A stretch of DNA of 64,000 bases, taken from positions 31,091-95,090 of IMG/VR virus record IMGVR_UViG_3300028534_000019. The stretch is one strand, 5' to 3'. A program made the position numbers and the translations under genes. Of the stretch, positions 4,884 to 41,706 are shown piece after piece. The notes under the pieces were generated by a model. It worked only from the letters and a program-made list of their open reading frames with translations, was not told the origin of the DNA and did not search any database. The DNA comes from a virus (Duplodnaviria; Heunggongvirae; Uroviricota; Caudoviricetes). The first letter of the stretch is position 1, and every line of letters begins with the position of its first letter.

Positions 4884-5633
4884 ATGTATATACCAAGAAG
4901 AGAATTTGATGATGAACCAAAAATAATTATTTTTAGTGGTGCTGGATTGGATGCCCCATCAGGATTAAAAACTTTTAGGGGTTCTGATGGTTTATGGGAT
5001 AGCCACAAAATACAAGATATTTGTACTGAAAGTACTTGGAAACAAAATTTTGAAGAAGTTCATAATTTTTATAATGGTTTAAGAAATAAATTAGAAAAAG
5101 CACAACCAAATAAAGCACATTTAAAAATAAAAGAATTATATGAAAAGTACCCTGATAGTGTTCTAAATATTACAATGAATATATCAGACTTTTTTGAAAG
5201 GTTAGAAGTTCCAGTTCTTCATATTCACGGAGAACTTAAAAAAATGGAATGTTATGCTTGTGGTACTAAATGGGATATTGGGTATAAGCAGTGGGATATT
5301 GAAAAAGATAGGTGTCCTAAATGCAATAGTAGAAAAGGTGTGAAACCATCTATTGTATTTTTTGGTGGTCAAGCACCTATGTATAGCTACTTGTGGCGTG
5401 CTTTTGAGCATACTATGAATAAAGATACTATTGTGATTGTTATTGGTACTCAGGGTAATGTAGTGAATGTAGAAGAGAATTTAATAGGTACTCCTTGTAA
5501 GAAAATTCTTTGTAATATGGAAGCATCAGCAGATATTAATGTAAAAAAATGTGGTTTTGATAAGGTGTACTATGAAAGTATAGAAACAGCAATAGACAAA
5601 ATTATGGATGATATTGAAGAATGGAAAAAATAA
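4884..5633 (+). CDS. Sir2-family NAD-dependent deacylase / ADP-ribosyltransferase (short sirtuin)
   Basis: GAGLDAPSGLKTFRG (GAGIS..SGIP.FR), GLW, NISDFF, catalytic LHIHGEL, CxxC...CxxC Zn module, VVIGTQGNVV. Confidence 0.8.
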   Translation: MYIPRREFDDEPKIIIFSGAGLDAPSGLKTFRGSDGLWDSHKIQDICTESTWKQNFEEVHNFYNGLRNKLEKAQPNKAHLKIKELYEKYPDSVLNITMNISDFFERLEVPVLHIHGELKKMECYACGTKWDIGYKQWDIEKDRCPKCNSRKGVKPSIVFFGGQAPMYSYLWRAFEHTMNKDTIVIVIGTQGNVVNVEENLIGTPCKKILCNMEASADINVKKCGFDKVYYESIETAIDKIMDDIEEWKK

Positions 5634-16601: not shown

Positions 16602-17051
16602 ATGATATATTCAAATAATAAAAAAGTAAAACACGACTATGAAATAATTGAAACATTTGAGGCAGGTGTTGTTTTGAGCGGTCCGCAAGTAAAATCAATT
16701 AGAAAAGGTTCTTTAAGCCTTAAAGGTTCTTATGTTAGTCTTGATGATGGTGTTTTATCATTAAAACAATACTCACTTGCTAGACCTGATTATTTGGATG
16801 CTTTTAGTTCTTTTGATGATAAACCAATAAAATTTTTACTCAAAAAAAGAGAGATTAAAAAATTACAAAAAAAGATTCAAGAAAAAGGTTTAACATTATC
16901 TATAACAAAAGTTTATCAACCTGAAAATACTAGATTTATTAAGGCTGAGTTAGTTCTTGTGAGAGGTAAAAAACTATATGATAAAAGAGAAGATTTAAAA
17001 AAGAAAACACAAGAAATGGATATGAAAAAGGCTATAAAATATGATAGATAA
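16602..17051 (+). CDS. smpB: SsrA-binding protein SmpB
   Basis: Collinear with E. coli SmpB: KHDYEIIETFEAGVVLSGPQVKSIRKGSLSLKGSYV vs [36 protein letters not shown]. C-terminal GKKLYDKREDLKKK vs GKKQHDKRSDIKER. Confidence 0.9.
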   Translation: MIYSNNKKVKHDYEIIETFEAGVVLSGPQVKSIRKGSLSLKGSYVSLDDGVLSLKQYSLARPDYLDAFSSFDDKPIKFLLKKREIKKLQKKIQEKGLTLSITKVYQPENTRFIKAELVLVRGKKLYDKREDLKKKTQEMDMKKAIKYDR

Positions 17052-17250
17052 TCTAAAAAGTGCTGATGAAATATATTTAGTAGTACAGTTTGGAGCAAAA
17101 GATTTTAACAATAGAACACAAGAATTGATTGATGAAAATTATATTCCATTTAGTGATGTTGCTGTTCAAAGTTTTCACGATGAATTTTGCTTTTCACAAC
17201 AGTTTATAAAAAATCCAAAATACATAGAAGAAACAAAAAGGAAAATATAA
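17041..17250 (+). CDS. hypothetical small protein
   Basis: 69-aa ORF bridging smpB and the next gene. Confidence 0.35.
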   Translation: MIDNLKSADEIYLVVQFGAKDFNNRTQELIDENYIPFSDVAVQSFHDEFCFSQQFIKNPKYIEETKRKI

Positions 17251-18041
17251 TGTTAATAGTACCTGTTGGTTTGCCTGGTTCAGGAAAAACTGTTTTATCA
17301 AGAAAATTTAATACAGTTATAAATGCTGATGAATTGTTTAAGGATAATTATACATTAGATGATTTAATAAATTATATAAAAGAATATAATTATACAGTAA
17401 CAGATGTTTATTTGGATGGTTTATTTATTACAAGGAATTTAGTTAAGAAATTGATTGAAACTTTTGATTATTATATTAGATTAGTATATTTTAAACCTAA
17501 TATAGAAAATTGTATCTACAATGATTTATCAAGAAATAGAGAAAAAGATAGTGTTAATATAATTTATGGTTCTGATTTAAGTTTTATGAAAGAAAGTTAT
17601 TTTAGAAATAAAATAAGAGAAACAATGGAAGTATATAAGGCTGATTATGTAGAATATATAAAAGAAGAAAATAACTTTCAAAATTATATAGAAACACAAG
17701 AGTATGTCTTAGAAGGAAGTACATATGGTACTTGTTGGGATGAAGACGGCCCGTCTGAAACAACACCTGATGACCCATACCATTTTACTGATTTTACAGA
17801 ACTTGAAAAGATATTTAAAAAAATGAATATTCCTTATACAGAAGAAAATTATAATAAAATTGAAAGTGTTATAGAAGAAGAAGATAGAAGTGAGGGTGAT
17901 TATTATGGTGGTTATGCTTATAAAGAGGTTTATAGAGTTGAAGTTACATTATTAATAAAAGCAATACTAAAAGAGTTTTTTGGTATTGATAAAACAGATA
18001 TGGCATATATTAAAAAAGAATACCCTGAACTAATATTTTAA
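17250..18041 (+). CDS. P-loop kinase (polynucleotide-kinase-like kinase domain) ending ...KKEYPELIF
   Basis: MLIVPVGLPGSGKT Walker A at the N-terminus, as in the T4 Pnk kinase domain (ILTIGCPGSGKST). The ORF track extends to 17187, but the ATG at 17250 gives the P-loop at the N-terminus. Confidence 0.5.
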   Translation: MLIVPVGLPGSGKTVLSRKFNTVINADELFKDNYTLDDLINYIKEYNYTVTDVYLDGLFITRNLVKKLIETFDYYIRLVYFKPNIENCIYNDLSRNREKDSVNIIYGSDLSFMKESYFRNKIRETMEVYKADYVEYIKEENNFQNYIETQEYVLEGSTYGTCWDEDGPSETTPDDPYHFTDFTELEKIFKKMNIPYTEENYNKIESVIEEEDRSEGDYYGGYAYKEVYRVEVTLLIKAILKEFFGIDKTDMAYIKKEYPELIF

Positions 18042-18056
18042 AAAAAAGGCTAAAAA

Positions 18057-18569
18057 ATGGTAGAAGAAAATAATTTTAGAGAAACAAAAACACATATTTA
18101 TTTTTGGGGTAGTATCTATTCTCAATGGTACACTTCAAAAAACCAATTCAAAGAAGATGGATTTATTTTTCAAAATGCTGAACAGTATATGATGATGAAA
18201 AAAGCAGAACTTTTTAAAGATTATGATGTATTAGAAAAAATGAAACAAACAAGTAATCCAAAGGTATTAAAAAAATTGGGTAGAGAAATTAAAGGTTTTG
18301 ATGAAGATATTTGGAATTTTAATAAAATGGATATTGTTGAAAGAGGGAATTTTTTAAAGTTCTCTCAAAATCCTAAGTTATTAGAAAAACTTATAGCACA
18401 CAAAAATAAACATATAGTAGAAGCATCACCTTATGATAAGATTTGGGGTATTGGGCTTCATTGGTCAGATGATAAGGTATTAAATGAAAGTACTTGGAAT
18501 GGTGAAAATCTTTTAGGTAAATGTATTATGTCAGCAAGAGATAAAATTTTAAATCCAAAATCTATATAA
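18057..18569 (+). CDS. NADAR-domain protein (YbiA-like, ADP-ribose/NAD-related N-glycosidase family)
   Basis: Collinear with E. coli YbiA: FWGSIYSQWY, NAEQYMMMKKAELF, FSQNPKLLEKL, VEASPYDKIWGIG (YbiA: VEHTENDAYWGDG). Confidence 0.8.
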   Translation: MVEENNFRETKTHIYFWGSIYSQWYTSKNQFKEDGFIFQNAEQYMMMKKAELFKDYDVLEKMKQTSNPKVLKKLGREIKGFDEDIWNFNKMDIVERGNFLKFSQNPKLLEKLIAHKNKHIVEASPYDKIWGIGLHWSDDKVLNESTWNGENLLGKCIMSARDKILNPKSI

Positions 18570-18639
18570 TAAGAAAAAATTAAATAAAAATATTATATAA
18601 TTAAGAATTAAAACATTTAAAACACAAAGGAGATAATTT

Positions 18640-20490
18640 ATGGCAGTTATTGGTATAGATTTAGGAACGACAAATAGTGCTGTTTCAGTTTATGAAGTAG
18701 GGGAATTTAAAATTATTCCTAATGCTGAGGGTAAAAATACAACACCTAGTATTGTAGCATTTACAGATAAAGGGGATGTATTAGTAGGGGAATCAGCAAA
18801 AAGACAAGCAGTCACAAACCCTGAAAAAACTATTGAAGCAATTAAAAGAATTATGGGTATGCAATTTAATGAACCTAGATGTAAAGAGGCTCAAGAAAAA
18901 GTACAATATAAAATTGTAGATAAAAATGGTTTGGCCGCTGTTGATGTTGATGGTAAGATTTATACACCACAAGAAATTTCAGCTAAAATCCTTACAAAAC
19001 TAAAAGATGATGCAGAAGCATTTATTGGTAAAGAAGTTACAGATGCTGTAATTACAGTTCCAGCATACTTTAATGATGCTCAGAGAAAGGCGACACAAGA
19101 GGCAGGCGTTATTGCAGGGCTTAATGTACTAAGAATTATTAATGAACCTACTTCGGCCGCTCTTGCTTATGGTTTGGACAAAAAAGGTGAGGAAAATATT
19201 CTTGTTTATGATTTTGGTGGTGGTACTTTTGATGTATCTGTATTAGAAATTGGAGATGGTACTTTTGAAGTTCTTTCAACTGATGGTAATGCTTTCTTAG
19301 GTGGTAAAGACTTTGACCAAATTTTAGTTAATTATATTGCTGAATATTTTAAAGAGAAACAGGGTGTTGATTTAAGAAATGATAAAATGGCACTTCAAAG
19401 ATTATATGATGCTTCAGAAAATGCTAAAAAAGAGTTATCAAGTGTTGTAGAAACTGAAATTAACTTACCATTTATTACTATGACAGAAGCCGGCCCGCAG
19501 CATCTTGTTTTAAAAATTTCAAGAGGTAAATTTGAGGGGTTAGTACAAAATCTTGTAGATGAAACTATTGAACATATTACAACAGCATTACAAGACGCTG
19601 GTTTAAGTGTAGATGATATTAGTGAATTGATTATGGTTGGTGGCTCAACAAGAATACCTTTAGTACAAGAGGCAGTTTCAAAGTATTTTAAAGGTAAAAC
19701 TCTTAATAAATCTGTTAATCCTGATGAAGTTGTAGCCGCTGGTGCTTCAATTCAAGGTGGTGTATTAACAGGAGATGTAAAAGATGTTCTTCTTCTTGAT
19801 GTTACACCATTATCACTTGGTATTGAAACTATGGGTGGTATTGCTACTAAAATCATCCCAAAAGGTACAACTATTCCTGTTAAAAAATCAGAAATCTTTA
19901 GTACAGCAGTTGATAATCAACCAGCAGTTAGTATTGTAGTAGTACAAGGTGAAGCAAAATTAGCAGAAGATAATAAATCTTTAGGACAATTTAATCTTGA
20001 GGGTATAACACCAGCTAAAAAAGGTGTACCACAAATTGAAGTTAATTTTGATGTTGATTCTAATGGTGTTTTGAGTGTATCAGCTATTGATAAAGGAACA
20101 GGTAAAGAACAGAAAATAACAATTACAGGTTCGACAGGTTTAAGTGAAGAAGAAATTAGAAAGATGATTGATGATGCTGAAAAACAAAATCAAGAAAAGG
20201 CTGAAAAAATTAAAGCAATTGAAGCAAAAAATGAATTGGATGCTACTCTTTCAAGAATTAAAAACTTTAATGATGAAGAAAAAAATGAAGTGCTATCAGC
20301 TAAAATTTCTGATGTTGAAGAATATGTAAAAGAAGATAGAACAGCAGAAGAAATTAGAAAAATTAGAGATGAACTTGAAGAAGTTTATTTAAAAGCATTT
20401 GAAGAGAAATCAAAAAGAAATGAAGGTGCTGAGGTAAAAGAAAGCACTGAAAATAATGATGATGTTATTGATGCTGAAATTGAAGAATAA
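18640..20490 (+). CDS. dnaK: Hsp70 chaperone DnaK homolog (full NBD + SBD + lid)
   Basis: [26 protein letters not shown] and the substrate-binding domain are all canonical. Confidence 0.95.
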
Positions 20491-20501
20491 AAGAGGAAAA
20501 A

Positions 20502-21305
20502 TTGAAAAAATTATATAAAATTCTTGAAATTGAAGAAACTTCTACAACAGTAGAAATAAAAAAAGCATATAGAAAATTAGCTAAAAAATACCACCCTGAT
20601 GTTTGTAAAGAAGAGGGTGGTGAAGATAAGTTTAAAGAAATTAATAGAGCATATGAAGTTCTAAGCAATCCACAAGAAAAACAAAAGTATGATAGATTTG
20701 GTGATGAAATGTATGAAAAAATGGGGTCAGGTGGTGGAAGACCTAATCCAAATGCTGATGAGTTTGCAGAAGCAATGGCATCATTTTTCAACCAAAAGGG
20801 AAATCCCCGACAAGGTAATCCTTTTGGTATGGGTGGTAATCCTTTTATTCATACAACAATTCAAGCATATATTTCGATAGAAGATTTATTTAAAGGTACT
20901 TCTATACAATTACAAGATGGTACTAAAGTAAAAATACCACCTAGAACAATACCGGGTAGTAGGGTAAGAGTTAAAGGCAAAGGTATGTCAGATGGTAAAA
21001 ATACAGGAGATTTATTTATTATCATAACACCAAAAAATAATGATAAAGAATTTGTTGAGAATGATACTATTATAAAGATTATCAAAATTGATTTAGTTAG
21101 TATGATTTTTGGAAATGAAATAAAATATAATCATTATGGTAAAGATTTAATTGTTACTGTTCCAAAAAATACAAAGCCCGGTGACTTTGTACAAATTCCC
21201 AATCAGGGCTTAGGTACTCAGGGTTCATTAATTTTACATTTAGATTTAGAATTACCAAAAGCAGAAGATTTAGATGAAGAAAAAGTAAAAGAATTATTTA
21301 ATTAA
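20502..21305 (+). CDS. DnaJ-like J-domain co-chaperone (type II, no Zn finger), TTG start
   Basis: J-domain YKILEI...AYRKLAKKYHPDV...YEVLSNPQEKQKYD. Gly-rich linker and a DnaJ C-terminal domain. AAGAGGAAAAA RBS before the TTG. Confidence 0.85.
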   Translation: MKKLYKILEIEETSTTVEIKKAYRKLAKKYHPDVCKEEGGEDKFKEINRAYEVLSNPQEKQKYDRFGDEMYEKMGSGGGRPNPNADEFAEAMASFFNQKGNPRQGNPFGMGGNPFIHTTIQAYISIEDLFKGTSIQLQDGTKVKIPPRTIPGSRVRVKGKGMSDGKNTGDLFIIITPKNNDKEFVENDTIIKIIKIDLVSMIFGNEIKYNHYGKDLIVTVPKNTKPGDFVQIPNQGLGTQGSLILHLDLELPKAEDLDEEKVKELFN

Positions 21306-24447: not shown

Positions 24448-25548
24448 ATGTTAGTTCAAAATAAAAAAGTTCCAAAAGAAACATTAGAGTTATTGGACTC
24501 TAAAATAGAAGAATTTGAAAAAAATACAAATTCAACTGTTTTATATATTACAATTACAGGTTCTGTTCTTTATGGTACTGATAATGAAAATAGTGATTTA
24601 GATTTTAAAGGTATTTTTATGCCTAATCTAAAAGAAGTGCTTATTGGTAATACACCTAGTGCTTTTGTTTTTAATTCAAATACAAAAGATAAAAACTCTT
24701 CTGATGATATTGATTTAACATTACACCCTGTAAATGACTTCTTTAATCATCTTAGAAAATCTGAAACAGGTGCTGTTGATTTACTTTTTAGTATGTTTAG
24801 AGAAGATACTATTGTTTTTGATGATGGTATTTTCACGAACTTTATGAAGAAAAATTATCAAAAGTTTAGAAATTCTAATATGAAAAGTTTTATCGGTTAT
24901 GCTGTTGGTCAAACTAAAAAATTTGGGATTAAAGGTGCTAGATATGAAGAGTTAGATGTTTTTTATAAAGATTGTGTTAATTATTTTAATCTTGCTCCAA
25001 AAGAAAATAAATTAGGTGAATATTGGGATTTTCTTGAACTAAAAGCCCAAGGTAAAAAATATATTAAGTTTACAAAAGCAGAAGGTGCTAGAAGAAATGA
25101 TGGTAGTAGTAATATCATTGATTATATTTCTGTTCTTGGTAAACTATATCATAAAGATGTAACAGTAGGTTATTTTTTAGAAAGAGTTTCTAAATTTTAT
25201 AATCAATTTGGTAATAGAACTAAAACAGTAGCTAAAACTGAATCAAAAACAGATTGGAAAGCAATGAGCCACGCCCTTAGAGTAGCTATGGAAGTTAAAG
25301 AGTTACTTCAATTTGGTTTTATTAAATTTCCATTGACTTATGCTGATGAGATTAAAGAAGTTAAATTTGGTAACAGAGAAGAACAAGAAACATTAGATAA
25401 AATTAGAGATGTATTGGGTGAAGTTGATACAATATTAGAAAATATTGATAAAGATAACTTTCCTTGTGAAATGAGTGAAGAATTACTTAAAAAATTAAAA
25501 TGGGAAGTAATTCTTCTATATAAAGAGTTTTTAGATTTAGGTTTTTAA
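24448..25548 (+). CDS. nucleotidyltransferase-fold protein (Pol-beta / CD-NTase-like GS...D.D motif)
   Basis: ITGSVLYGTDNENSDLDFKGIF is the [GS]x9-13 Dh[DE]h signature. A third acidic DIDLT lies downstream. 366 aa. Confidence 0.55.
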   Translation: MLVQNKKVPKETLELLDSKIEEFEKNTNSTVLYITITGSVLYGTDNENSDLDFKGIFMPNLKEVLIGNTPSAFVFNSNTKDKNSSDDIDLTLHPVNDFFNHLRKSETGAVDLLFSMFREDTIVFDDGIFTNFMKKNYQKFRNSNMKSFIGYAVGQTKKFGIKGARYEELDVFYKDCVNYFNLAPKENKLGEYWDFLELKAQGKKYIKFTKAEGARRNDGSSNIIDYISVLGKLYHKDVTVGYFLERVSKFYNQFGNRTKTVAKTESKTDWKAMSHALRVAMEVKELLQFGFIKFPLTYADEIKEVKFGNREEQETLDKIRDVLGEVDTILENIDKDNFPCEMSEELLKKLKWEVILLYKEFLDLGF

Positions 25549-26664: not shown

Positions 26665-27576
26665 ATGGAAGAACAAATAGCGATTGATTTAGGCTATTCA
26701 ACATCAAAAGTTGCTTATGCTGATAAAATAGCAAAATTCCCAACTGCTGTTTCTTTTGCTACTGATGTAGGTACATCATATGGTGAAGGGAATATTTATG
26801 ACTTTGAGGGAGATAAGTATTATGTGGGTAGTGAAGCCGCTGATGCTGAGGCTTTTACAACTATGGATTTTAAATTTTTATATAAATTTGCTCCTCTTCT
26901 TATCTATCATATTTTAAGTAAATTTGATAAAGCAGAACTTGAAAAACCTATTGTTGTAAAAACAGGATTGGCAATTGTTGATTGGCATAAAAAAGATGAT
27001 TTTATTGAAAGAATTTCAAAAATTGAAGTGAATGGGCAAACTGTTGAAACAACACCCATTCTTATTCCTCAAGGTGCTGGATGTGCTGTTGATTGGGTTT
27101 CATCAGATAATGATGGAGAATGGCCGGACAATCTTACAGTAGTTGATATTGGTTATAATACTATTAACCTTATATCATTTTTAGAGGGTAAACCAATTAG
27201 AAAAAATATGAAAAGTTACCCAGGACACGGTGTTTCTAGTATAATTAAACCTTTTACTAGTTATCTTGAAAATACTTTTGGTACAACATTTTCAGAACAA
27301 GAAGCAATTAAATTTTTTGTTAAAGGTACTTTTAAATATAATGGTGAAGACCAACCTAAAGTATCAGAAAAAATTACAGAATTAAAATCACAATTTGTTA
27401 AAAAAATGTTTCAATCTGTTTTAGTTTCTGATAAAAAACTTCTTGCTATGTCAGATGTAGTGCTTATTGCTGGTGGTGGTGCTTATTTACTTCAAGATAT
27501 TCCATTCCCGCCAAATGTTGAGTTTGTTGATTCTCCTTATGAGTTCAGTAATACTCGTGGTTATTTAATTTCATAA
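26665..27576 (+). CDS. actin-like ATPase of the ParM/StbA/Alp family
   Basis: Phosphate-1 IAIDLGYSTSKVA, phosphate-2 VVDIGYNTINL, adenosine motif LIAGGGA. 303 aa. Confidence 0.75.
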   Translation: MEEQIAIDLGYSTSKVAYADKIAKFPTAVSFATDVGTSYGEGNIYDFEGDKYYVGSEAADAEAFTTMDFKFLYKFAPLLIYHILSKFDKAELEKPIVVKTGLAIVDWHKKDDFIERISKIEVNGQTVETTPILIPQGAGCAVDWVSSDNDGEWPDNLTVVDIGYNTINLISFLEGKPIRKNMKSYPGHGVSSIIKPFTSYLENTFGTTFSEQEAIKFFVKGTFKYNGEDQPKVSEKITELKSQFVKKMFQSVLVSDKKLLAMSDVVLIAGGGAYLLQDIPFPPNVEFVDSPYEFSNTRGYLIS

Positions 27577-30909: not shown

Positions 30910-31217
30910 TGTCAAAGCAATGGCTTAGTGAATTAATAGAACAGCCATATGAATGGTGTATTGAAACTGTTACAAAAGAGCCTGAATTACTAAAAAATAT
31001 AAAAGTACAAACACAAGAACTTTGTGAAATAGCATTTTATGAAGATTATAAAACAGCAAAATATATACATCAAGAATTTAGATTTAATGAGAGAATTTTA
31101 GCTATTGCTCGACAGCATAGTTTATTAAATAAAAGCATACCACAAGATATGCTTGAAAAAATAAATGAATATCCATATAATTACTTTGAAAAGAAATATC
31201 CTGAAATCTTTTTCTAA
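30909..31217 (+). CDS. hypothetical protein ending ...EKKYPEIFF
   Basis: 102-aa ORF. Member of the YPE-tail set. Confidence 0.45.
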   Translation: MSKQWLSELIEQPYEWCIETVTKEPELLKNIKVQTQELCEIAFYEDYKTAKYIHQEFRFNERILAIARQHSLLNKSIPQDMLEKINEYPYNYFEKKYPEIFF

Positions 31218-36901: not shown

Positions 36902-37321
36902 ATGATTTTAATCATAGATACATTATTTACAGAAAGTGTTGCTTTAACAGTTATTCAAGAAAAAGAGAATGAAAAAAGAGTTAAAGAAGTTAATTATAAA
37001 GATGTTAAAAAAGAAATTGAAAATAACACTTTTAATATTTGTAATTTAAAAGATGATGTTATAAGATTTATTAAAATAAATGATGTTCCTGCTGATGTTT
37101 TTGAAAGTTTTAAAGAGTATTTAAGAGGTTGTTTATTTGAATTAACAGTTAAAAACCTTAAAAAAGGTTTTGAAGATACTTTGAAAATACAAGAAGTTAC
37201 TAAATCAATTAATGATTTAGATATTAAAATTTCTATTGCTGATAATGTTTTTGAATTAGGACAATTATCAATAGCATTAGATTATTATAAAAATGAATTA
37301 GATAAAATAAAAGGGTTATAA
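36902..37321 (+). CDS. hypothetical protein
   Basis: 139-aa ORF behind the second copy of the 66-nt promoter cassette. Confidence 0.45.
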   Translation: MILIIDTLFTESVALTVIQEKENEKRVKEVNYKDVKKEIENNTFNICNLKDDVIRFIKINDVPADVFESFKEYLRGCLFELTVKNLKKGFEDTLKIQEVTKSINDLDIKISIADNVFELGQLSIALDYYKNELDKIKGL

Positions 37322-38004
37322 TGGATAATATATTATTAAGAGATTTAGTTAATGAGATTGATGAAAATACTAAGGTTATTTCAGATACTCATTTTTCTCA
37401 TAAAAATATCCTAAATTTTGAGCCTTGTAGATTAACACAAATGAGAATTGATGGTTATGATGCAGATGAACACGACAAATGGCTCATAGATAAATGGAAT
37501 GAGAATGTAGGTAAAGATGAACTTGTTATACATTTAGGTGATTTTGCTTTTAAAAGAGTAGCTGAATGTTTAGAAGAATTAAATGGTAGAATTATTTTAA
37601 TTCTTGGAAACCACGATGGAAATTCAAAAAATACAAAATATAATAAGGCTACTGTTGTAGATGGTTCTTATATGTTTCTAAAGTCTTATACAGATGATAC
37701 AATATTATGTAAAATTGTTGATGAAGATGAGAAAAATAGTTCTTTGATAATTGAAATTGGTGGTAAGACTGTTATGTTTTGTCATTATGCTTTATTTAAT
37801 AAAAATGGTGAATGGGATTATAAAAATCCAAAGATAGCACCAAGAATTAAATATCTTGAGAGTATTTATTCTATGTTAGATTGTGATGTAAATGTACACG
37901 GTCATCTACATAGTTCTATTAGTACTTTTGATAAAAGTATAAACTGTTCTCTTGAACATATTGAGTTTAAACCAACAAAAATAAAAGATTTAAAAGGGTG
38001 GTAA
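37321..38004 (+). CDS. calcineurin-like metallophosphoesterase
   Basis: MPP motifs ISDTHFSH, HLGDF, ILGNHDG, GHLH. Confidence 0.75.
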   Translation: MDNILLRDLVNEIDENTKVISDTHFSHKNILNFEPCRLTQMRIDGYDADEHDKWLIDKWNENVGKDELVIHLGDFAFKRVAECLEELNGRIILILGNHDGNSKNTKYNKATVVDGSYMFLKSYTDDTILCKIVDEDEKNSSLIIEIGGKTVMFCHYALFNKNGEWDYKNPKIAPRIKYLESIYSMLDCDVNVHGHLHSSISTFDKSINCSLEHIEFKPTKIKDLKGW

Positions 38005-38172
38005 ATGGTAGTAAATGATTTAAGAGTTATGCTAAGTACAGCATTAGAAATTATTGGTGATAGAAATGCTTTACCATCAGATAAAGATAAAATTATTCTA
38101 TTGATGAAGAGTGAAGCAACAACACATAATCTTGAAGAAATAGAAAAGATTTGTGAAAAATATAAAGGATAG
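38005..38172 (+). CDS. possible small ORF (~55 aa) not in the ORF track
   Basis: ATG at 38005 overlapping the previous stop. Open to a TAG at about 38170. Fills the gap before the CCA-enzyme gene. Confidence 0.3.
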   Translation: MVVNDLRVMLSTALEIIGDRNALPSDKDKIILLMKSEATTHNLEEIEKICEKYKG

Positions 38173-38174
38173 TA

Positions 38175-39122
38175 ATGTTTGTTGTTAGAAAATTGCTTGA
38201 AGAAGCAAATGATAATTATTTTAAAAGACTTAATGATAATGAAATATCTAAAAATGATATAGAAATTTATGAAACTATTTTCCCTATTAGAAAATTAGAT
38301 GCTAGAAAATTAGATGATTTTGTTTCTAAAACTAACATTGATAATCTATTAATTAAAATTTCAAAACTAGATAATTCTTATATTAAAACTTTACTTAATG
38401 ATGTAATACTGATATTATCTAATGAAAAACCAAACTCAAGTCTAGCAGAAAATCTAAATCTTGTAAAAATGAGAATTGAAATAGATTTAGATGATGATGT
38501 TAAAAATTTTATATATGCTGAGGATATTATAGAAGTTTTAAAAACATTACCTAAAAGAACATTTATTGTAGGTGGTTTTGTTAGAGATTCAATAGCTAAT
38601 AGAAGTGCTAATGATATGGATTTTTGTACTGAAAATAGCTATGAAGATGTAAAAAAAGTTTTTGAAAAAAATAAAAACTTCTCTATTAAAGAAACAGGTA
38701 AACATTTTTCTGTTTTGATTGTTACAGATAAAAATAATCTTGAATCTTTTGAAATTGCTCAATTAAGAAAAGACAAAGATAATGGTGGTGCTGAAATAGG
38801 AACTATTATAGATGATGCTGAAAGAAGAGATTTTATGAATAGTGCTATTTACTTTGATATTAATTCTAAAGTATTAATTGACCCTCACGGTCAATCAATA
38901 GATGATAGTGTCAGAAATGTAATTAGATTTATTGGCAAACCTGAGGATAGAATAAAAGAAGACCCTCTAAGGGTTCTAAGATTTTATAGATTTATGGGTA
39001 GAGGTTGGGTAGCTGATTCAAAATCATTAAAAGCAGTGAGAACTAATTTTAGTTTAATGATGAATGAAACATCTCATAATAGAGTTATGAGTGAAATTGA
39101 AAAAATGGTAATGGGAGCATAA
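38175..39122 (+). CDS. cca: tRNA nucleotidyltransferase (CCA-adding enzyme, class II head domain)
   Basis: FIVGGFVRDSI (GGxVRD), NDMDFC (DxD), DAERRDFMNSAIYFD (RRD motif), EDPLRVLRFYRF (EDxxR). Confidence 0.8.
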   Translation: MFVVRKLLEEANDNYFKRLNDNEISKNDIEIYETIFPIRKLDARKLDDFVSKTNIDNLLIKISKLDNSYIKTLLNDVILILSNEKPNSSLAENLNLVKMRIEIDLDDDVKNFIYAEDIIEVLKTLPKRTFIVGGFVRDSIANRSANDMDFCTENSYEDVKKVFEKNKNFSIKETGKHFSVLIVTDKNNLESFEIAQLRKDKDNGGAEIGTIIDDAERRDFMNSAIYFDINSKVLIDPHGQSIDDSVRNVIRFIGKPEDRIKEDPLRVLRFYRFMGRGWVADSKSLKAVRTNFSLMMNETSHNRVMSEIEKMVMGA

Positions 39123-39353
39123 ATGAATTGTACAGTTTTATATAAAGACAAAGATTATGATATAACAGTGAAAGGTTTTAAAAACATTACAGAAGCAGAG
39201 GATTTTATTCAAGATAAAACTGAAGATGATGAATGTTATGAACCGAGAATAATGGTTGATTATCCAATCATTCAACAACAAGAAGAAACAATAAAACTAT
39301 TAAGAAGTTTACTTGAATCTTTTGCTAATGATTTTAAAGTAAAAAGATTATAA
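39123..39353 (+). CDS. hypothetical small protein
   Basis: 76-aa ORF. Confidence 0.4.
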   Translation: MNCTVLYKDKDYDITVKGFKNITEAEDFIQDKTEDDECYEPRIMVDYPIIQQQEETIKLLRSLLESFANDFKVKRL

Positions 39354-39451
39354 ATATCTTTGATATTTTATAAAAAATTAAGTAAAGTTAGAGTATAATT
39401 ACACATACAAAAAGGATATGTTGTTTTAATTATAAAAACTTTACTTACTAT

Positions 39452-39772
39452 GGGGATGATATGGTTTCGACTGGAAGTCATAGCACTAATGATACCTTTT
39501 AAAATTAAACGCAAACAACACAGATTACACTGGTAACACAGTGCTTTCAGCATAGTCTAAGGACTTGACTGAGGGGTTTTTAAGTTTTACCTTGCAACAG
39601 AAAAACTTATCCTTTTCGTTTTATATGGTTGTATGTCCTTAACATACATTAAAGTTTGTAATCTTTTCAAAATTACACATAAAAGTTAATAGTTCTTGGT
39701 TCTTTTAAAAACTAGAACATATCATTAGTGTGGATTTTTAGGACTCGGGTTCAATTCCCGACATCTCCACCA
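39452..39772 (+). ncRNA. ssrA: tmRNA (ssrA), about 321 nt
   Basis: 5' GGGGAUG pairs with 3' CAUCUCC-ACCA, giving an acceptor stem with a G3:U wobble (Ala identity). 3' tRNA-like GGACUCGGGUUCAAUUCCCGA T-arm. Encoded CCA. Internal tag ORF GCA AAC AAC ACA GAT TAC ACT GGT AAC ACA GTG CTT TCA GCA TAG gives ANNTDYTGNTVLSA-stop. Coordinates are +/-1 to 2. Confidence 0.85.
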
Positions 39773-39843: not shown

Positions 39844-41706
39844 ATGAGTCAAGATATTGTTTTAGGTATTGATTTAGGTACAACAATGAGTGTAATATCA
39901 TATTACGACCCCCACGAAAAAGCAGTCAAACTTATTAAAGATAAAGAACAAAAAGTTTTATTTCCATCAGTTGTTGCTTTGGTTGATGGTAAATGGGAAG
40001 TTGGTGAAAGGGCTTTAGAACAATATGAAGTAACTCCTGAATTAACAATAAGAAATATTAAAAGACTTATGGGAACACCATTTTATTCTGATGGATGTAA
40101 ACAAGCAAAAAATATAATCAGTTCAAAAGTTGTTAATATGGATGGTATGGCAGGTGTTGAGTTGATGGGTAAACAATATTCACCTGAAGAAATTTCCTCA
40201 ATCATTCTTAGTTTTTTAAAAGATACAGCAGAAAAACATTTTGAAAGATTGAAATTAGATTATAATATTAGTGGTGTTGTTATAACAGTTCCAGCATACT
40301 TCAATCATAACCAAAGAACAGCCACAAGGCGTGCTGGAGAGGTAGCTGGACTAAATGTATTAAGGATAGTTAATGAGCCGACAGCGGCTTCTCTTGCTTA
40401 TGGTTTACAAAATAAAGAAGATGGTAAAATAGTAGCAGTTGATTTAGGTGGTGGTACATTTGATGTATCAGTAATTGATATTTCTGATAGTACATATAAA
40501 GTTCTAAGTACAAATGGTAACTCTTATTTTGGTGGAGAAGACCTAAATAATAAAATTTTTAAAAATTTAGTAGATTTTATAAAGGCTAATATTGGAATAG
40601 ATATTACACTAAGTGATAGGTCACAAGCAATATTAAATGAAGAAATAGAGAGAGTAAAACAAGAACTTTCTTTTAATAAATCTTCTTACCTAAATGCTAA
40701 TGATATTTTTGAAAAAGACCCTTATAATTTTTCAGCTAAGATTACAAGAGAAGAATTAGAAGAAATTCTTGATTTTGGAGAAGTTAAAAAACACATAATT
40801 AAGGCTATTGAAGATGCTGATGTAAAATATGAAGAAATACAAGATGTTGTTTTAGTTGGTGGTTCAACAAGAATACCTATGTTGAAAAAAATAGTTTCTA
40901 AATTATTTGATGGTAGAGAACTTTATGATAAATTAAACCCTGATGAGGTAGTTTCAATAGGTGCTTCTATTCAGGGTGCTATTATTTCAGGTTATATTGA
41001 TGATATTTTGTTAATTGATGTTGCTTCTTTATCTTTGGGTATAAAATTAGATGACGAAACATTTTTACCAATTATTAAAAAAGGAACAGTATTACCAGCA
41101 GAATTTAATGATAATGTTACAACTTCTGAGAATGACCAAAAATTCTTAGTTTTTAATATAGCCCAAGGTGAAGCAGAAAAATTTAGTGATAATATTTTCT
41201 TAGGTAACTTTATTTTTGAGGGTTTTGATACCGGACCGGCAGGTTATCCAAACATAACTGTAACAATAAAACAAAATTTAGATGGTATTATAGAAGTATT
41301 AGTTAAAGATGAAAATTCTAAAGCAAAAGAAACTTATCTCATTGAGGGTGAATATAATATTTCACAAAGTAGAATACAAGAATTAACAGCTAAAAATGAA
41401 GAAAGTAATGAAGAAAACAAAGAAGAAAATGAAAGAAAAAGATGTTTATCGAGAATAAAATATAAATTGTTTGAAATTGAAAGATATGCTGAAAAATTTG
41501 ATTCTGAGAGAATGAGAGAATTATATAAAAATGGTTTGGATGCCATAAAAGAAGATAAACTAAAAGCAAGTGATTTATCAGTTATAGAAAATTATCTATC
41601 AAGTAGATATTTTAGTGTTATGGCTTCACACCAAAAAGAAATAGAAAACAAATTAGAAGAAAATGCTAGAAATTATGCTAAAAAACTTAGAAAAAAGGAA
41701 AAATAA
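39844..41706 (+). CDS. second, divergent Hsp70-family chaperone
   Basis: [25 protein letters not shown] motifs. 620 aa. SBD-like C-terminal half. Confidence 0.9.
   Translation: MSQDIVLGIDLGTTMSVISYYDPHEKAVKLIKDKEQKVLFPSVVALVDGKWEVGERALEQYEVTPELTIRNIKRLMGTPFYSDGCKQAKNIISSKVVNMDGMAGVELMGKQYSPEEISSIILSFLKDTAEKHFERLKLDYNISGVVITVPAYFNHNQRTATRRAGEVAGLNVLRIVNEPTAASLAYGLQNKEDGKIVAVDLGGGTFDVSVIDISDSTYKVLSTNGNSYFGGEDLNNKIFKNLVDFIKANIGIDITLSDRSQAILNEEIERVKQELSFNKSSYLNANDIFEKDPYNFSAKITREELEEILDFGEVKKHIIKAIEDADVKYEEIQDVVLVGGSTRIPMLKKIVSKLFDGRELYDKLNPDEVVSIGASIQGAIISGYIDDILLIDVASLSLGIKLDDETFLPIIKKGTVLPAEFNDNVTTSENDQKFLVFNIAQGEAEKFSDNIFLGNFIFEGFDTGPAGYPNITVTIKQNLDGIIEVLVKDENSKAKETYLIEGEYNISQSRIQELTAKNEESNEENKEENERKRCLSRIKYKLFEIERYAEKFDSERMRELYKNGLDAIKEDKLKASDLSVIENYLSSRYFSVMASHQKEIENKLEENARNYAKKLRKKEK

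Follow-up and report, generated by a model that had tools for sequence, protein, structure and literature searches.

The phage tmRNA gene and its RNA structure

We analyzed a 64,000-nt stretch of viral DNA (positions 31,091 to 95,090 of IMG/VR record IMGVR_UViG_3300028534_000019; hereafter, the window) that derives from a T4-like myovirus of ~26% GC and carries a gene for transfer-messenger RNA (tmRNA, ssrA). ARAGORN made a single tmRNA call in the window, at 39452-39772 on the + strand, with the tag peptide ANNTDYTGNTVLSA followed by a stop codon, and the Rfam model RF00023 aligned with the same RNA from end to end (model positions 1-374; 90.8 bits; gathering score 47; E 5e-34). The two methods agreed on the position of the resume codon, GCA, and the tag coding part (tmRNA gene positions 60-104, window positions 39511-39555) had exactly the coordinates and the peptide given in an earlier note on this DNA, which was made from the sequence alone. 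The minimum free energy (MFE) fold of the RNA was far more stable than those of shuffled sequences (z -3.96). The following features were assigned to the gene and its RNA.

39452-39772, + strand: one-piece tmRNA gene (ssrA), 321 nt, with the 3' CCA encoded (ARAGORN, Rfam RF00023, MFE stability)
39452-39458, + strand: 5' strand of the acceptor stem, GGGGAUG, pairing with CAUCUCC at 39762-39768, which is followed by ACCA at 39769-39772 (sequence, MFE, Rfam)
39471-39494, + strand: 5' strand of helix P2, pairing with 39720-39741 in runs of 9 and 12 bp (MFE, centroid)
39495-39510, + strand: A/U-rich linker CCUUUUAAAAUUAAAC, 16 nt, from P2 to the resume codon, in the place of pseudoknot 1, which is absent (Rfam, MAFFT, distances)
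39511-39555, + strand: tag frame, GCA AAC AAC ACA GAU UAC ACU GGU AAC ACA GUG CUU UCA GCA UAG, encoding ANNTDYTGNTVLSA and a stop
39528-39543, + strand: hairpin CACUG-GUAACA-CAGUG with a 5-bp stem, spanning tag codons 6-11 (MFE, both for the full RNA and for its mRNA-like domain folded by itself)
39544-39575, + strand: helix 5, its 5' strand formed by CUU UCA GCA (Leu-Ser-Ala), with UAG in the upper stem (MFE)
39576-39719, + strand: rest of the pseudoknot domain, with at least three clear hairpins at tmRNA positions 130-158, 179-197, and 206-226 (MFE)
39745-39761, + strand: T arm, UCGGG-UUCAAUU-CCCGA (Rfam, MFE)
39349-39356 and 39394-39399, + strand: possible tmRNA promoters, TATAAATA of T4 late type and TATAAT, respectively (motif scan, consensus matches only)

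Nothing is missing from the tRNA-like domain, the UUCGAC motif, the T arm, or the CCA end, all of which Rfam aligned with top posterior probability, as it did the columns of the 7-bp acceptor stem, which contains a G3.U wobble. This wobble is the alanine identity element. The mRNA-like domain comprises a UUAAAC-GCA resume site, 14 codons, and a UAG within the helix 5 stem; the resume codon retains its upstream U (-5) and A (-4), and in the MFE fold all three bases of the Ser codon, UCA, pair with the UGA at tmRNA positions 119-121. In the Rfam alignment P2 is formed by ACUAAUGAU paired with AUCAUUAGU. Stems resembling PK2 and PK3 appeared in that alignment at low posterior probability, in an A/U-rich sequence that permits many alternative crossing stems and has no homologues for covariation.

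We compared the phage RNA with cellular tmRNAs recovered by scanning bacterial and archaeal genomes, one for each species, for TTCGAC-N{50,80}-GCNAAYAAYACNGAYTAY, a pattern that sampled only tags starting with ANNTDY, other tags of the Campylobacterota (formerly Epsilonproteobacteria) being outside its scope. The scan returned at least 120 loci, and among the matches listed there were 92 sites at which ARAGORN found a tmRNA; counts and ranges for cellular tmRNAs given below refer to these 92 unless another set is named. The distance from TTCGAC to the resume codon was 39 nt in the phage and 64-71 nt in the cellular RNAs, the resume codon stood at position 60 instead of 85-91, and the total length was 321 nt compared with 355-401 nt. 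Rfam deleted ~36 model positions (about 46-81) at the site of pseudoknot 1, and a MAFFT alignment with 11 cellular tmRNAs placed a clean gap of ~28 nt there and indicated that the conserved GCAUG/CAUGU part of P2 had also been lost. The 16-nt linker after P2 leaves no space for pseudoknot 1 (helices 3 and 4), which has been lost completely from the phage tmRNA. Neither this loss nor the phage smpB gene described below was mentioned in the earlier note.

The 321-nt gene was 100% identical, by string search, in the ENA assembly ERZ27262685 (a 56.8-kb contig, L001), and ARAGORN extracted the same tmRNA from this contig and from a Logan contig of SRR8439170 (L002); a JGI contig of 100,859 bp encodes neighbouring proteins identical to those of the phage. 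Because the sequence is identical in three assemblies, which are independent as assemblies and possibly derive from one sample, we rejected an assembly artefact. An attP or integration fragment was rejected as well, the gene being full length and the surrounding gene content T4-like. The GC content of the tmRNA (34%) lies nearer to that of the phage than to that of its cellular homologues (42-59%), which together with the three identical assemblies indicates a resident gene, not contamination.

Given the candidate promoters upstream of the tmRNA, formation of the mature 5' end would need processing by RNase P. Across the window the T4 late-promoter consensus TATAAATA was not enriched (20 found, 27 expected). 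Many of its 13 + strand copies lie just upstream of + strand open reading frame (ORF) starts (e.g., 9312, 10383, 14575, 47940, 49655, and 53948), and one copy, at 39349, lies 96 nt upstream of the tmRNA.

The tag peptide and its affinity to Campylobacterota

The matches listed from the species-genome scan were almost all from Campylobacterota, including Sulfurovum, Nitratiruptor, Nitratifractor, Hydrogenimonas, Sulfurimonas, an Arcobacter metagenome-assembled genome (MAG), and many Campylobacterales MAGs, which bears out the earlier suggestion that the ANNTDY start is epsilonproteobacterial in kind. Among these matches, those from other phyla had no tmRNA at the site, except for one Ardenticatenales MAG (L071). 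The resemblance extends to the nucleotide level: the first 18 nt of the phage tag, GCAAACAACACAGATTAC, match the nearly invariant cellular GCAAACAAYACAGATTAY, codons 1-6 are homologous to those of cellular tags, and the TTAAAC upstream of the phage resume codon is also the commonest cellular hexamer (28/92). The conserved tag start and upstream hexamer fix the resume codon and the reading frame by homology. The possibility that a correct structural alignment would place the resume codon in another frame, giving a tag that ends in -AA, was thus not realized, since Rfam and homology both keep the same GCA frame. A shorter tag, ANNTDYTG followed by a stop, had been proposed for an alternative frame, and no such frame exists; the -1 frame reads RKQHRLHW and a stop, and the +1 frame QTTQITLVTQCFQHSLRT and a stop.

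Beyond the sixth residue the phage tag parts from its cellular counterparts. Cellular tags have a core of the form x-P-A-[YLF]-A-x-A, in which P8, A9, A11, and A13 are each found in 89-91 of the 92 tags (91 for the first three). Positions 7-14 of the phage tag are T-G-N-T-V-L-S-A, which has only the final Ala in common with this core, at a similar overall length (14 residues in the phage, 13-14 in cells). As the earlier note had observed, the tag ends in Leu-Ser-Ala and has no C-terminal Ala-Ala. Its assumption that Ala-Ala is the canonical end does not hold for tags of this type: 68 of the 92 cellular tags end in -VA (mostly ANNTDYRPAYAVA), 24 end in -AA, and none ends in -SA, a majority for -VA that tempers claims of a non-canonical degron made from Escherichia coli rules. 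Judged from these sequences, the oddity of the phage tag is that the whole conserved C-terminal core has been replaced, not that Ala-Ala is absent.

Together, the tag start and the nucleotide homology support assignment of the phage tmRNA to a Campylobacterota-type lineage. Of the epsilonproteobacterial host proposed earlier, this affinity at the phylum level stands; the data gave no finer host call. A divergent Hsp70 encoded next to the tmRNA had its best named matches in the DnaK proteins of Caminibacter, Nautilia, and Nitratiruptor at ~40% identity, which hints at a possible Nautiliaceae or Nitratiruptor host. The phage SmpB had no clear lineage affinity.

SmpB, chaperone genes, and the search for relatives

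The window also encodes an SmpB, 22 kb from the tmRNA, as well as several genes for chaperones and RNA end processing.

16602-17051, + strand: SmpB, 149 aa, with the C-terminal tail GKKLYDKRE (tblastn, Pfam PF01668, NCBIfam)
18640-21305, + strand: DnaK (18640-20490; NCBIfam DnaK equivalog, 870 bits) and DnaJ (20502-21305; DnaJ and DnaJ_C domains), 1.6 kb downstream of smpB
38175-39122, + strand: tRNA nucleotidyltransferase (CCA enzyme), with a CCA-adding or poly(A) polymerase head domain (Pfam PF01743, PHROG 2244; below NCBIfam equivalog cutoffs)
39844-41706, + strand: divergent Hsp70, starting 72 nt downstream of the tmRNA (Pfam HSP70, 471 bits; below the DnaK equivalog cutoff)

A tblastn search of the window with an E. 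coli SmpB sequence matched 16617-17039 (31.7% identity, E 2.7e-16). The phage protein matched Pfam PF01668 over its full length (132 bits, cutoff 27) and passed two NCBIfam equivalogs, NF003843 (130.3 vs 130) and TIGR00086 (126.8 vs 119.1), and in alignment the invariant residues and the GKKLYDKRE tail are kept. We conclude that the phage encodes both partners of a putative trans-translation system, and we predict that its SmpB pairs with its tmRNA.

At window positions 16602-21305, smpB is clustered with two small ORFs and with genes for a NADAR-domain protein, DnaK, and DnaJ; with the second Hsp70, this cluster makes up what is by annotation a large protein quality-control kit for a T4-like phage. 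The stop codon of the tRNA nucleotidyltransferase gene lies 330 nt upstream of the tmRNA, and this enzyme, a metallophosphoesterase, and RlaP, a member of an RNA-repair nucleotidyltransferase family, are encoded at 24448-25548 and 37321-39122 and could form a set for repair of tRNA or tmRNA 3' ends. There are no tRNA genes in the 64-kb window. The phage origin of the DNA, which the earlier note had taken for granted, is borne out by replication and structural genes, including those for gp32, RNase H, the large terminase (TerL), gp15, baseplate proteins, a tape-measure-like protein, a gp6-like protein, and hub proteins. The terminase is ~39% identical to those of CP220-group Campylobacter phages and ~41% identical to those of some Vibrio phages. 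A ClpP-like protease is probably the prohead protease. The window also encodes a Sir2-family protein (4884-5633) and an actin-like protein (ALP/MreB-like; 26665-27576).

Searches for a related phage tmRNA were negative. The tmRNA region had no blastn match among INPHARED phages, and scans of IMG/VR with the 24-nt tag start and with TTCGAC-N{30,60}-ANNTDY returned no match. The matches of an IMG/VR scan with TTCGAC-N{25,55}-TAAACGCAAACAAY were either two-piece tmRNAs from marine phages, which are unrelated, or due to chance; an IMG/VR scan with the 3' T-arm/acceptor motif returned 48 loci, none of them related. Nothing was found in a scan of JGI metagenomes for the variant without pseudoknot 1, a scan that did not recover the source phage itself either. 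At 80 IMG/VR loci with relatives of the CCA enzyme there was a single tmRNA call, a dubious one, and a motif search detected no one-piece tmRNA; contigs carrying homologues of the CCA enzyme, Hsp70, and SmpB likewise had no tmRNA. Relatives of SmpB at 80 IMG/VR loci were accompanied by 53 tmRNAs, all within ~1.2 kb downstream of smpB and mostly near a contig end, which we take to be host smpB-ssrA loci at prophage borders; save in two poorly supported exceptions (L286 and L287), their resume codons stand at positions 71-96 and their tags all end in -AA.

The closest phage recovered, IMGVR_UViG_3300026484_000351, is a family-level relative that shares the terminase (58% identity), a neck-region protein (66%), the NADAR protein (59%), SmpB (49%), the phosphoesterase (48%), and the CCA enzyme (41%). 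DnaK-DnaJ and the second Hsp70 are absent from the 41 kb fetched of this genome, and the Hsp70 at 39844-41706 is absent from the syntenic region. Since that region lacks both the tmRNA and the Hsp70, these two genes look like an insert in our phage, with the CCA-enzyme block on one side and the shared genes that come next on the other. An insertion of ~1.3 kb interrupts the terminase alignment of the relative (L247 and L164), which is reminiscent of the intein annotated for the terminase of Campylobacter phage CP220.

A proposed role in ribosome rescue, the fate of tagged proteins, and comparison with known systems

We propose that the phage carries its own streamlined trans-translation module, consisting of a tmRNA without pseudoknot 1 and an SmpB and serving mainly ribosome rescue, an explanation that we hold to be fairly probable. 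The phage tmRNA would have descended from a Campylobacterota-type tmRNA and been streamlined to 321 nt by deletion of pseudoknot 1 and rebuilding of P2. We infer that it is expressed, charged, and used for tagging in four steps: host RNase P would trim the 5' end of the precursor RNA; host alanyl-tRNA synthetase (AlaRS) would charge the phage tmRNA with alanine via the conserved G3.U; phage SmpB and host EF-Tu would bring it to ribosomes stalled on broken or non-stop mRNAs; and translation would resume at GCA (39511), append ANNTDYTGNTVLSA, and end at the helix 5 UAG, whereupon the ribosome would be freed. The chief benefit to the phage is probably the recycling of ribosomes during infection. 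The C-terminal half of the tag would have drifted along with the restructuring of the mRNA-like domain, given that the new helix 5 takes its 5' strand from the Leu-Ser-Ala codons.

Several observations weigh against this proposal. Pseudoknot 1, near-universal in natural tmRNAs (PMC1168896), is missing here, so that the function of the phage RNA is a prediction, as is its expression, and its candidate promoters are consensus matches only. The tag keeps none of the conserved P8, A9, and A11, which would fit loss of the host degron equally well, and its -SA end occurs in no other tag recovered in the cellular, prophage-border, or phage sets. The relative IMGVR_UViG_3300026484_000351 has SmpB and, in the 41 kb fetched, no tmRNA, even at Rfam E<=1. 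As no related phage with a tmRNA was found, there is also no comparative evidence of selection on the tag or on the RNA.

The fate of tagged proteins can be approached indirectly, through published work on tags with other ends in E. coli and Helicobacter pylori. To our knowledge, H. pylori is the sole member of the Campylobacterota studied for trans-translation. Its tag has no SspB motif, changing the terminal AA to DD stabilised a model trans-translation target only weakly, and ssrA and smpB are essential in this species through ribosome rescue and not through tagging, a tag of 2 residues being viable (PMC2584231). For ClpX of E. coli, the main determinant is the terminal Ala-Ala, either residue of which can be substituted at the cost of a higher KM and with little change in Vmax (PMC7652416). 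A conservative change of the terminal Ala to Ser raised the KM of E. coli ClpXP from 8.3 to 65 uM (~8-fold) and did not lower kcat; in the same study, short polar residues were disfavoured at the antepenultimate position, and FKLVA, the C-terminal tag with the highest enrichment in a large screen, was degraded by ClpXP like YALAA (PMC10862746).

The phage tag retains a C-terminal Ala, and its end, Val-Leu-Ser-Ala, resembles a hydrophobic, Ala-terminated degron and may well still be one. By analogy with the tags just described, we consider it most likely that this end acts as a working or weakened proteolysis signal, not as a block to degradation. The -LSA end is unusual, yet does not in itself show that tagged proteins escape degradation. 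With -VA ends common, -LVA degraded, and -DD weakly stabilising, the label "non-degradable" is a weak inference, and the step made in the earlier note from the absence of -AA to a non-degradable or re-routed tail and a new host-takeover strategy is without support. The base pairing of the Leu-Ser-Ala codons in helix 5 suggests, moreover, that the Ser may simply reflect a constraint at the RNA level.

An alternative that gives the tail itself a role is that the tmRNA rescues ribosomes and deliberately adds a sequence that host proteases do not see or that is routed elsewhere, e.g., to the phage Hsp70 or DnaK-DnaJ, so that rescue is uncoupled from ClpXP load or from degradation. The C-terminal eight residues, which share the last Ala alone with the conserved cellular motif, and the -SA end, unique among the tags recovered, fit this idea, as does the weakening of E. 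coli ClpXP degrons by short polar residues near the end (PMC10862746). So do the positions of the tmRNA 72 nt upstream of the second Hsp70 and of smpB 1.6 kb upstream of DnaK-DnaJ, although gene adjacency to an Hsp70 is weak evidence. We nevertheless think it unlikely, because the end of the phage tag is still hydrophobic and Ala-terminated, -VA is the majority end of the cellular ANNTDY tags, even -DD stabilises an H. pylori target only weakly (PMC2584231), and helix 5 pairing constrains the Leu-Ser-Ala codons, whose residues may be a by-product of RNA structure.

Equally unlikely in our estimate is that the gene is a decaying relic, a captured host tmRNA that is losing its function, whose degron has drifted and which persists only as its deletion has not yet happened. 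The loss of pseudoknot 1 and of the GCAUG/CAUGU part of P2 and a C-terminal half of the tag unrelated to cellular tags would fit a relic. So would the status of the gene as a singleton, the 41 kb fetched of the nearest relative having shown no tmRNA, and the fact that an 8-codon stretch open by chance is not improbable. The elements for charging and ribosome entry (G3.U, T arm, UUCGAC, CCA, and resume context) are intact, however, and P2 has been rebuilt as a long helix with runs of 9 and 12 bp instead of eroding. The stop codon still lies within a helix-5-like stem, an intact SmpB is maintained elsewhere in the phage genome, and the shift of the tmRNA's composition towards that of the phage implies long residence with structure preserved.

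A bolder version of the streamlined module would be a self-contained system in which the tmRNA without pseudoknot 1 and a co-evolved SmpB free ribosomes while the tail no longer matches the host degron, uncoupling rescue from proteolysis, with the products spared or passed to the phage Hsp70 or DnaK-DnaJ; we regard this as quite improbable. Least credible is a decoy or inhibitor, an RNA that would shut down host trans-translation by competing for SmpB, AlaRS, EF-Tu, or stalled ribosomes, as proposed previously for phage RNAs consisting only of the tRNA-like domain: such genes exist in phages (DS6A; PMC4131195), with at least 11 elements of this kind in IMG/VR (see below), and loss of pseudoknot 1 could impair normal function, but our RNA keeps a complete mRNA-like domain, resume context, open frame, and stop, all needless for a decoy, and the phage supplies SmpB rather than titrating it.

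Phage genes for tmRNA and SmpB are already known, and their presence alone is not news. What matters here, more than the -LSA ending, is the natural loss of pseudoknot 1 in the company of a cognate SmpB, which, if the RNA is functional, would represent a natural minimal tmRNA design and be relevant to a long-standing question, the purpose of pseudoknot 1. With host-like residues 1-6 joined to a replaced C-terminal core, the tag likewise offers a natural test of rescue only against rescue with degradation.

Among known systems, the closest in sequence are the chromosomal ssrA genes of Campylobacterota with tags of the type ANNTDYRPAYAVA(A), which share the tRNA-like domain with the phage (up to 49 of the last 62 nt), UUCGAC, TTAAAC, the resume GCA, the first six codons, the tag length, and the last Ala. 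They differ in that their tags end in -AVA or -AA, whereas that of the phage ends in -LSA with residues 7-13 unrelated, and in that they possess pseudoknot 1 and the GCAUG/CAUGU part of P2. The cellular helix 5, GCUUACGC-AGUA-GCGUAAGU, is formed over the AYAVA-stop codons, and the phage helix 5 is built from other codons. Exceptions named in comparative work, in which nearly every natural tmRNA has pseudoknot 1, are Oenococcus oeni and a plastid fragment (PMC1168896).

In phages, tmRNAs have been described from the mycobacteriophage Bxz1 group and Bacillus phage G, and from DS6A in a form reduced to the tRNA-like domain (PMC4131195), and a survey found tmRNA in 402 of 18,146 phage genomes (PMC9004378). 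Like other phage tmRNAs, including the two-piece tmRNAs of Melnitz and pelagimyophages, ours is a complete gene in a large lytic-type phage genome, and it is accompanied by an SmpB, as are those of huge phages (PMC7162821). The other phage tags that we recovered mostly end in -AA (~40 two-piece tmRNAs), the exceptions being one -HA and five -LV or -SV predictions. The former is a predicted 26-residue tag in IMG/VR (L351); the latter come from phage contigs with ~25-tRNA arrays that end in a predicted two-piece tmRNA (L132, L137, L144, L149, and L151), with predicted tags ANNIVAFSRQTALV or ANNIVAFSRQTVSV, and are ARAGORN calls only that overlap a tRNA-Ala call. Two short one-piece phage tmRNAs (L327 and L335; 284 and 289 nt) have their resume codon at 91-93, from which it follows that they kept pseudoknot 1 and shed later parts, the reverse of what is seen here.

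Mini-tmRNAs of the DS6A type, with a tRNA-like domain only, appear to be widespread in uncultured phages: in IMG/VR, at least 11 elements (88-135 nt) passed the gathering score of the Rfam tmRNA model with matches to its two ends (L369, L334, L331, L364, L360, L361, L346, L358, L340, L338, and L332). They are likewise reduced and phage-borne, but the tmRNA described here still has its full mRNA-like domain with the tag frame, as well as the greater part of its body. Tagging can reportedly survive in engineered E. coli tmRNAs from which pseudoknot 1 was removed or in which it was replaced by a hairpin, constructs attributed to Tanner et al. in 2006 and Wower et al. in 2009. Compared with these engineered RNAs, that of the phage is a natural one, in which a single-stranded linker of 16 nt, with no substitute hairpin, takes the place of pseudoknot 1, and which comes with an SmpB of its own.

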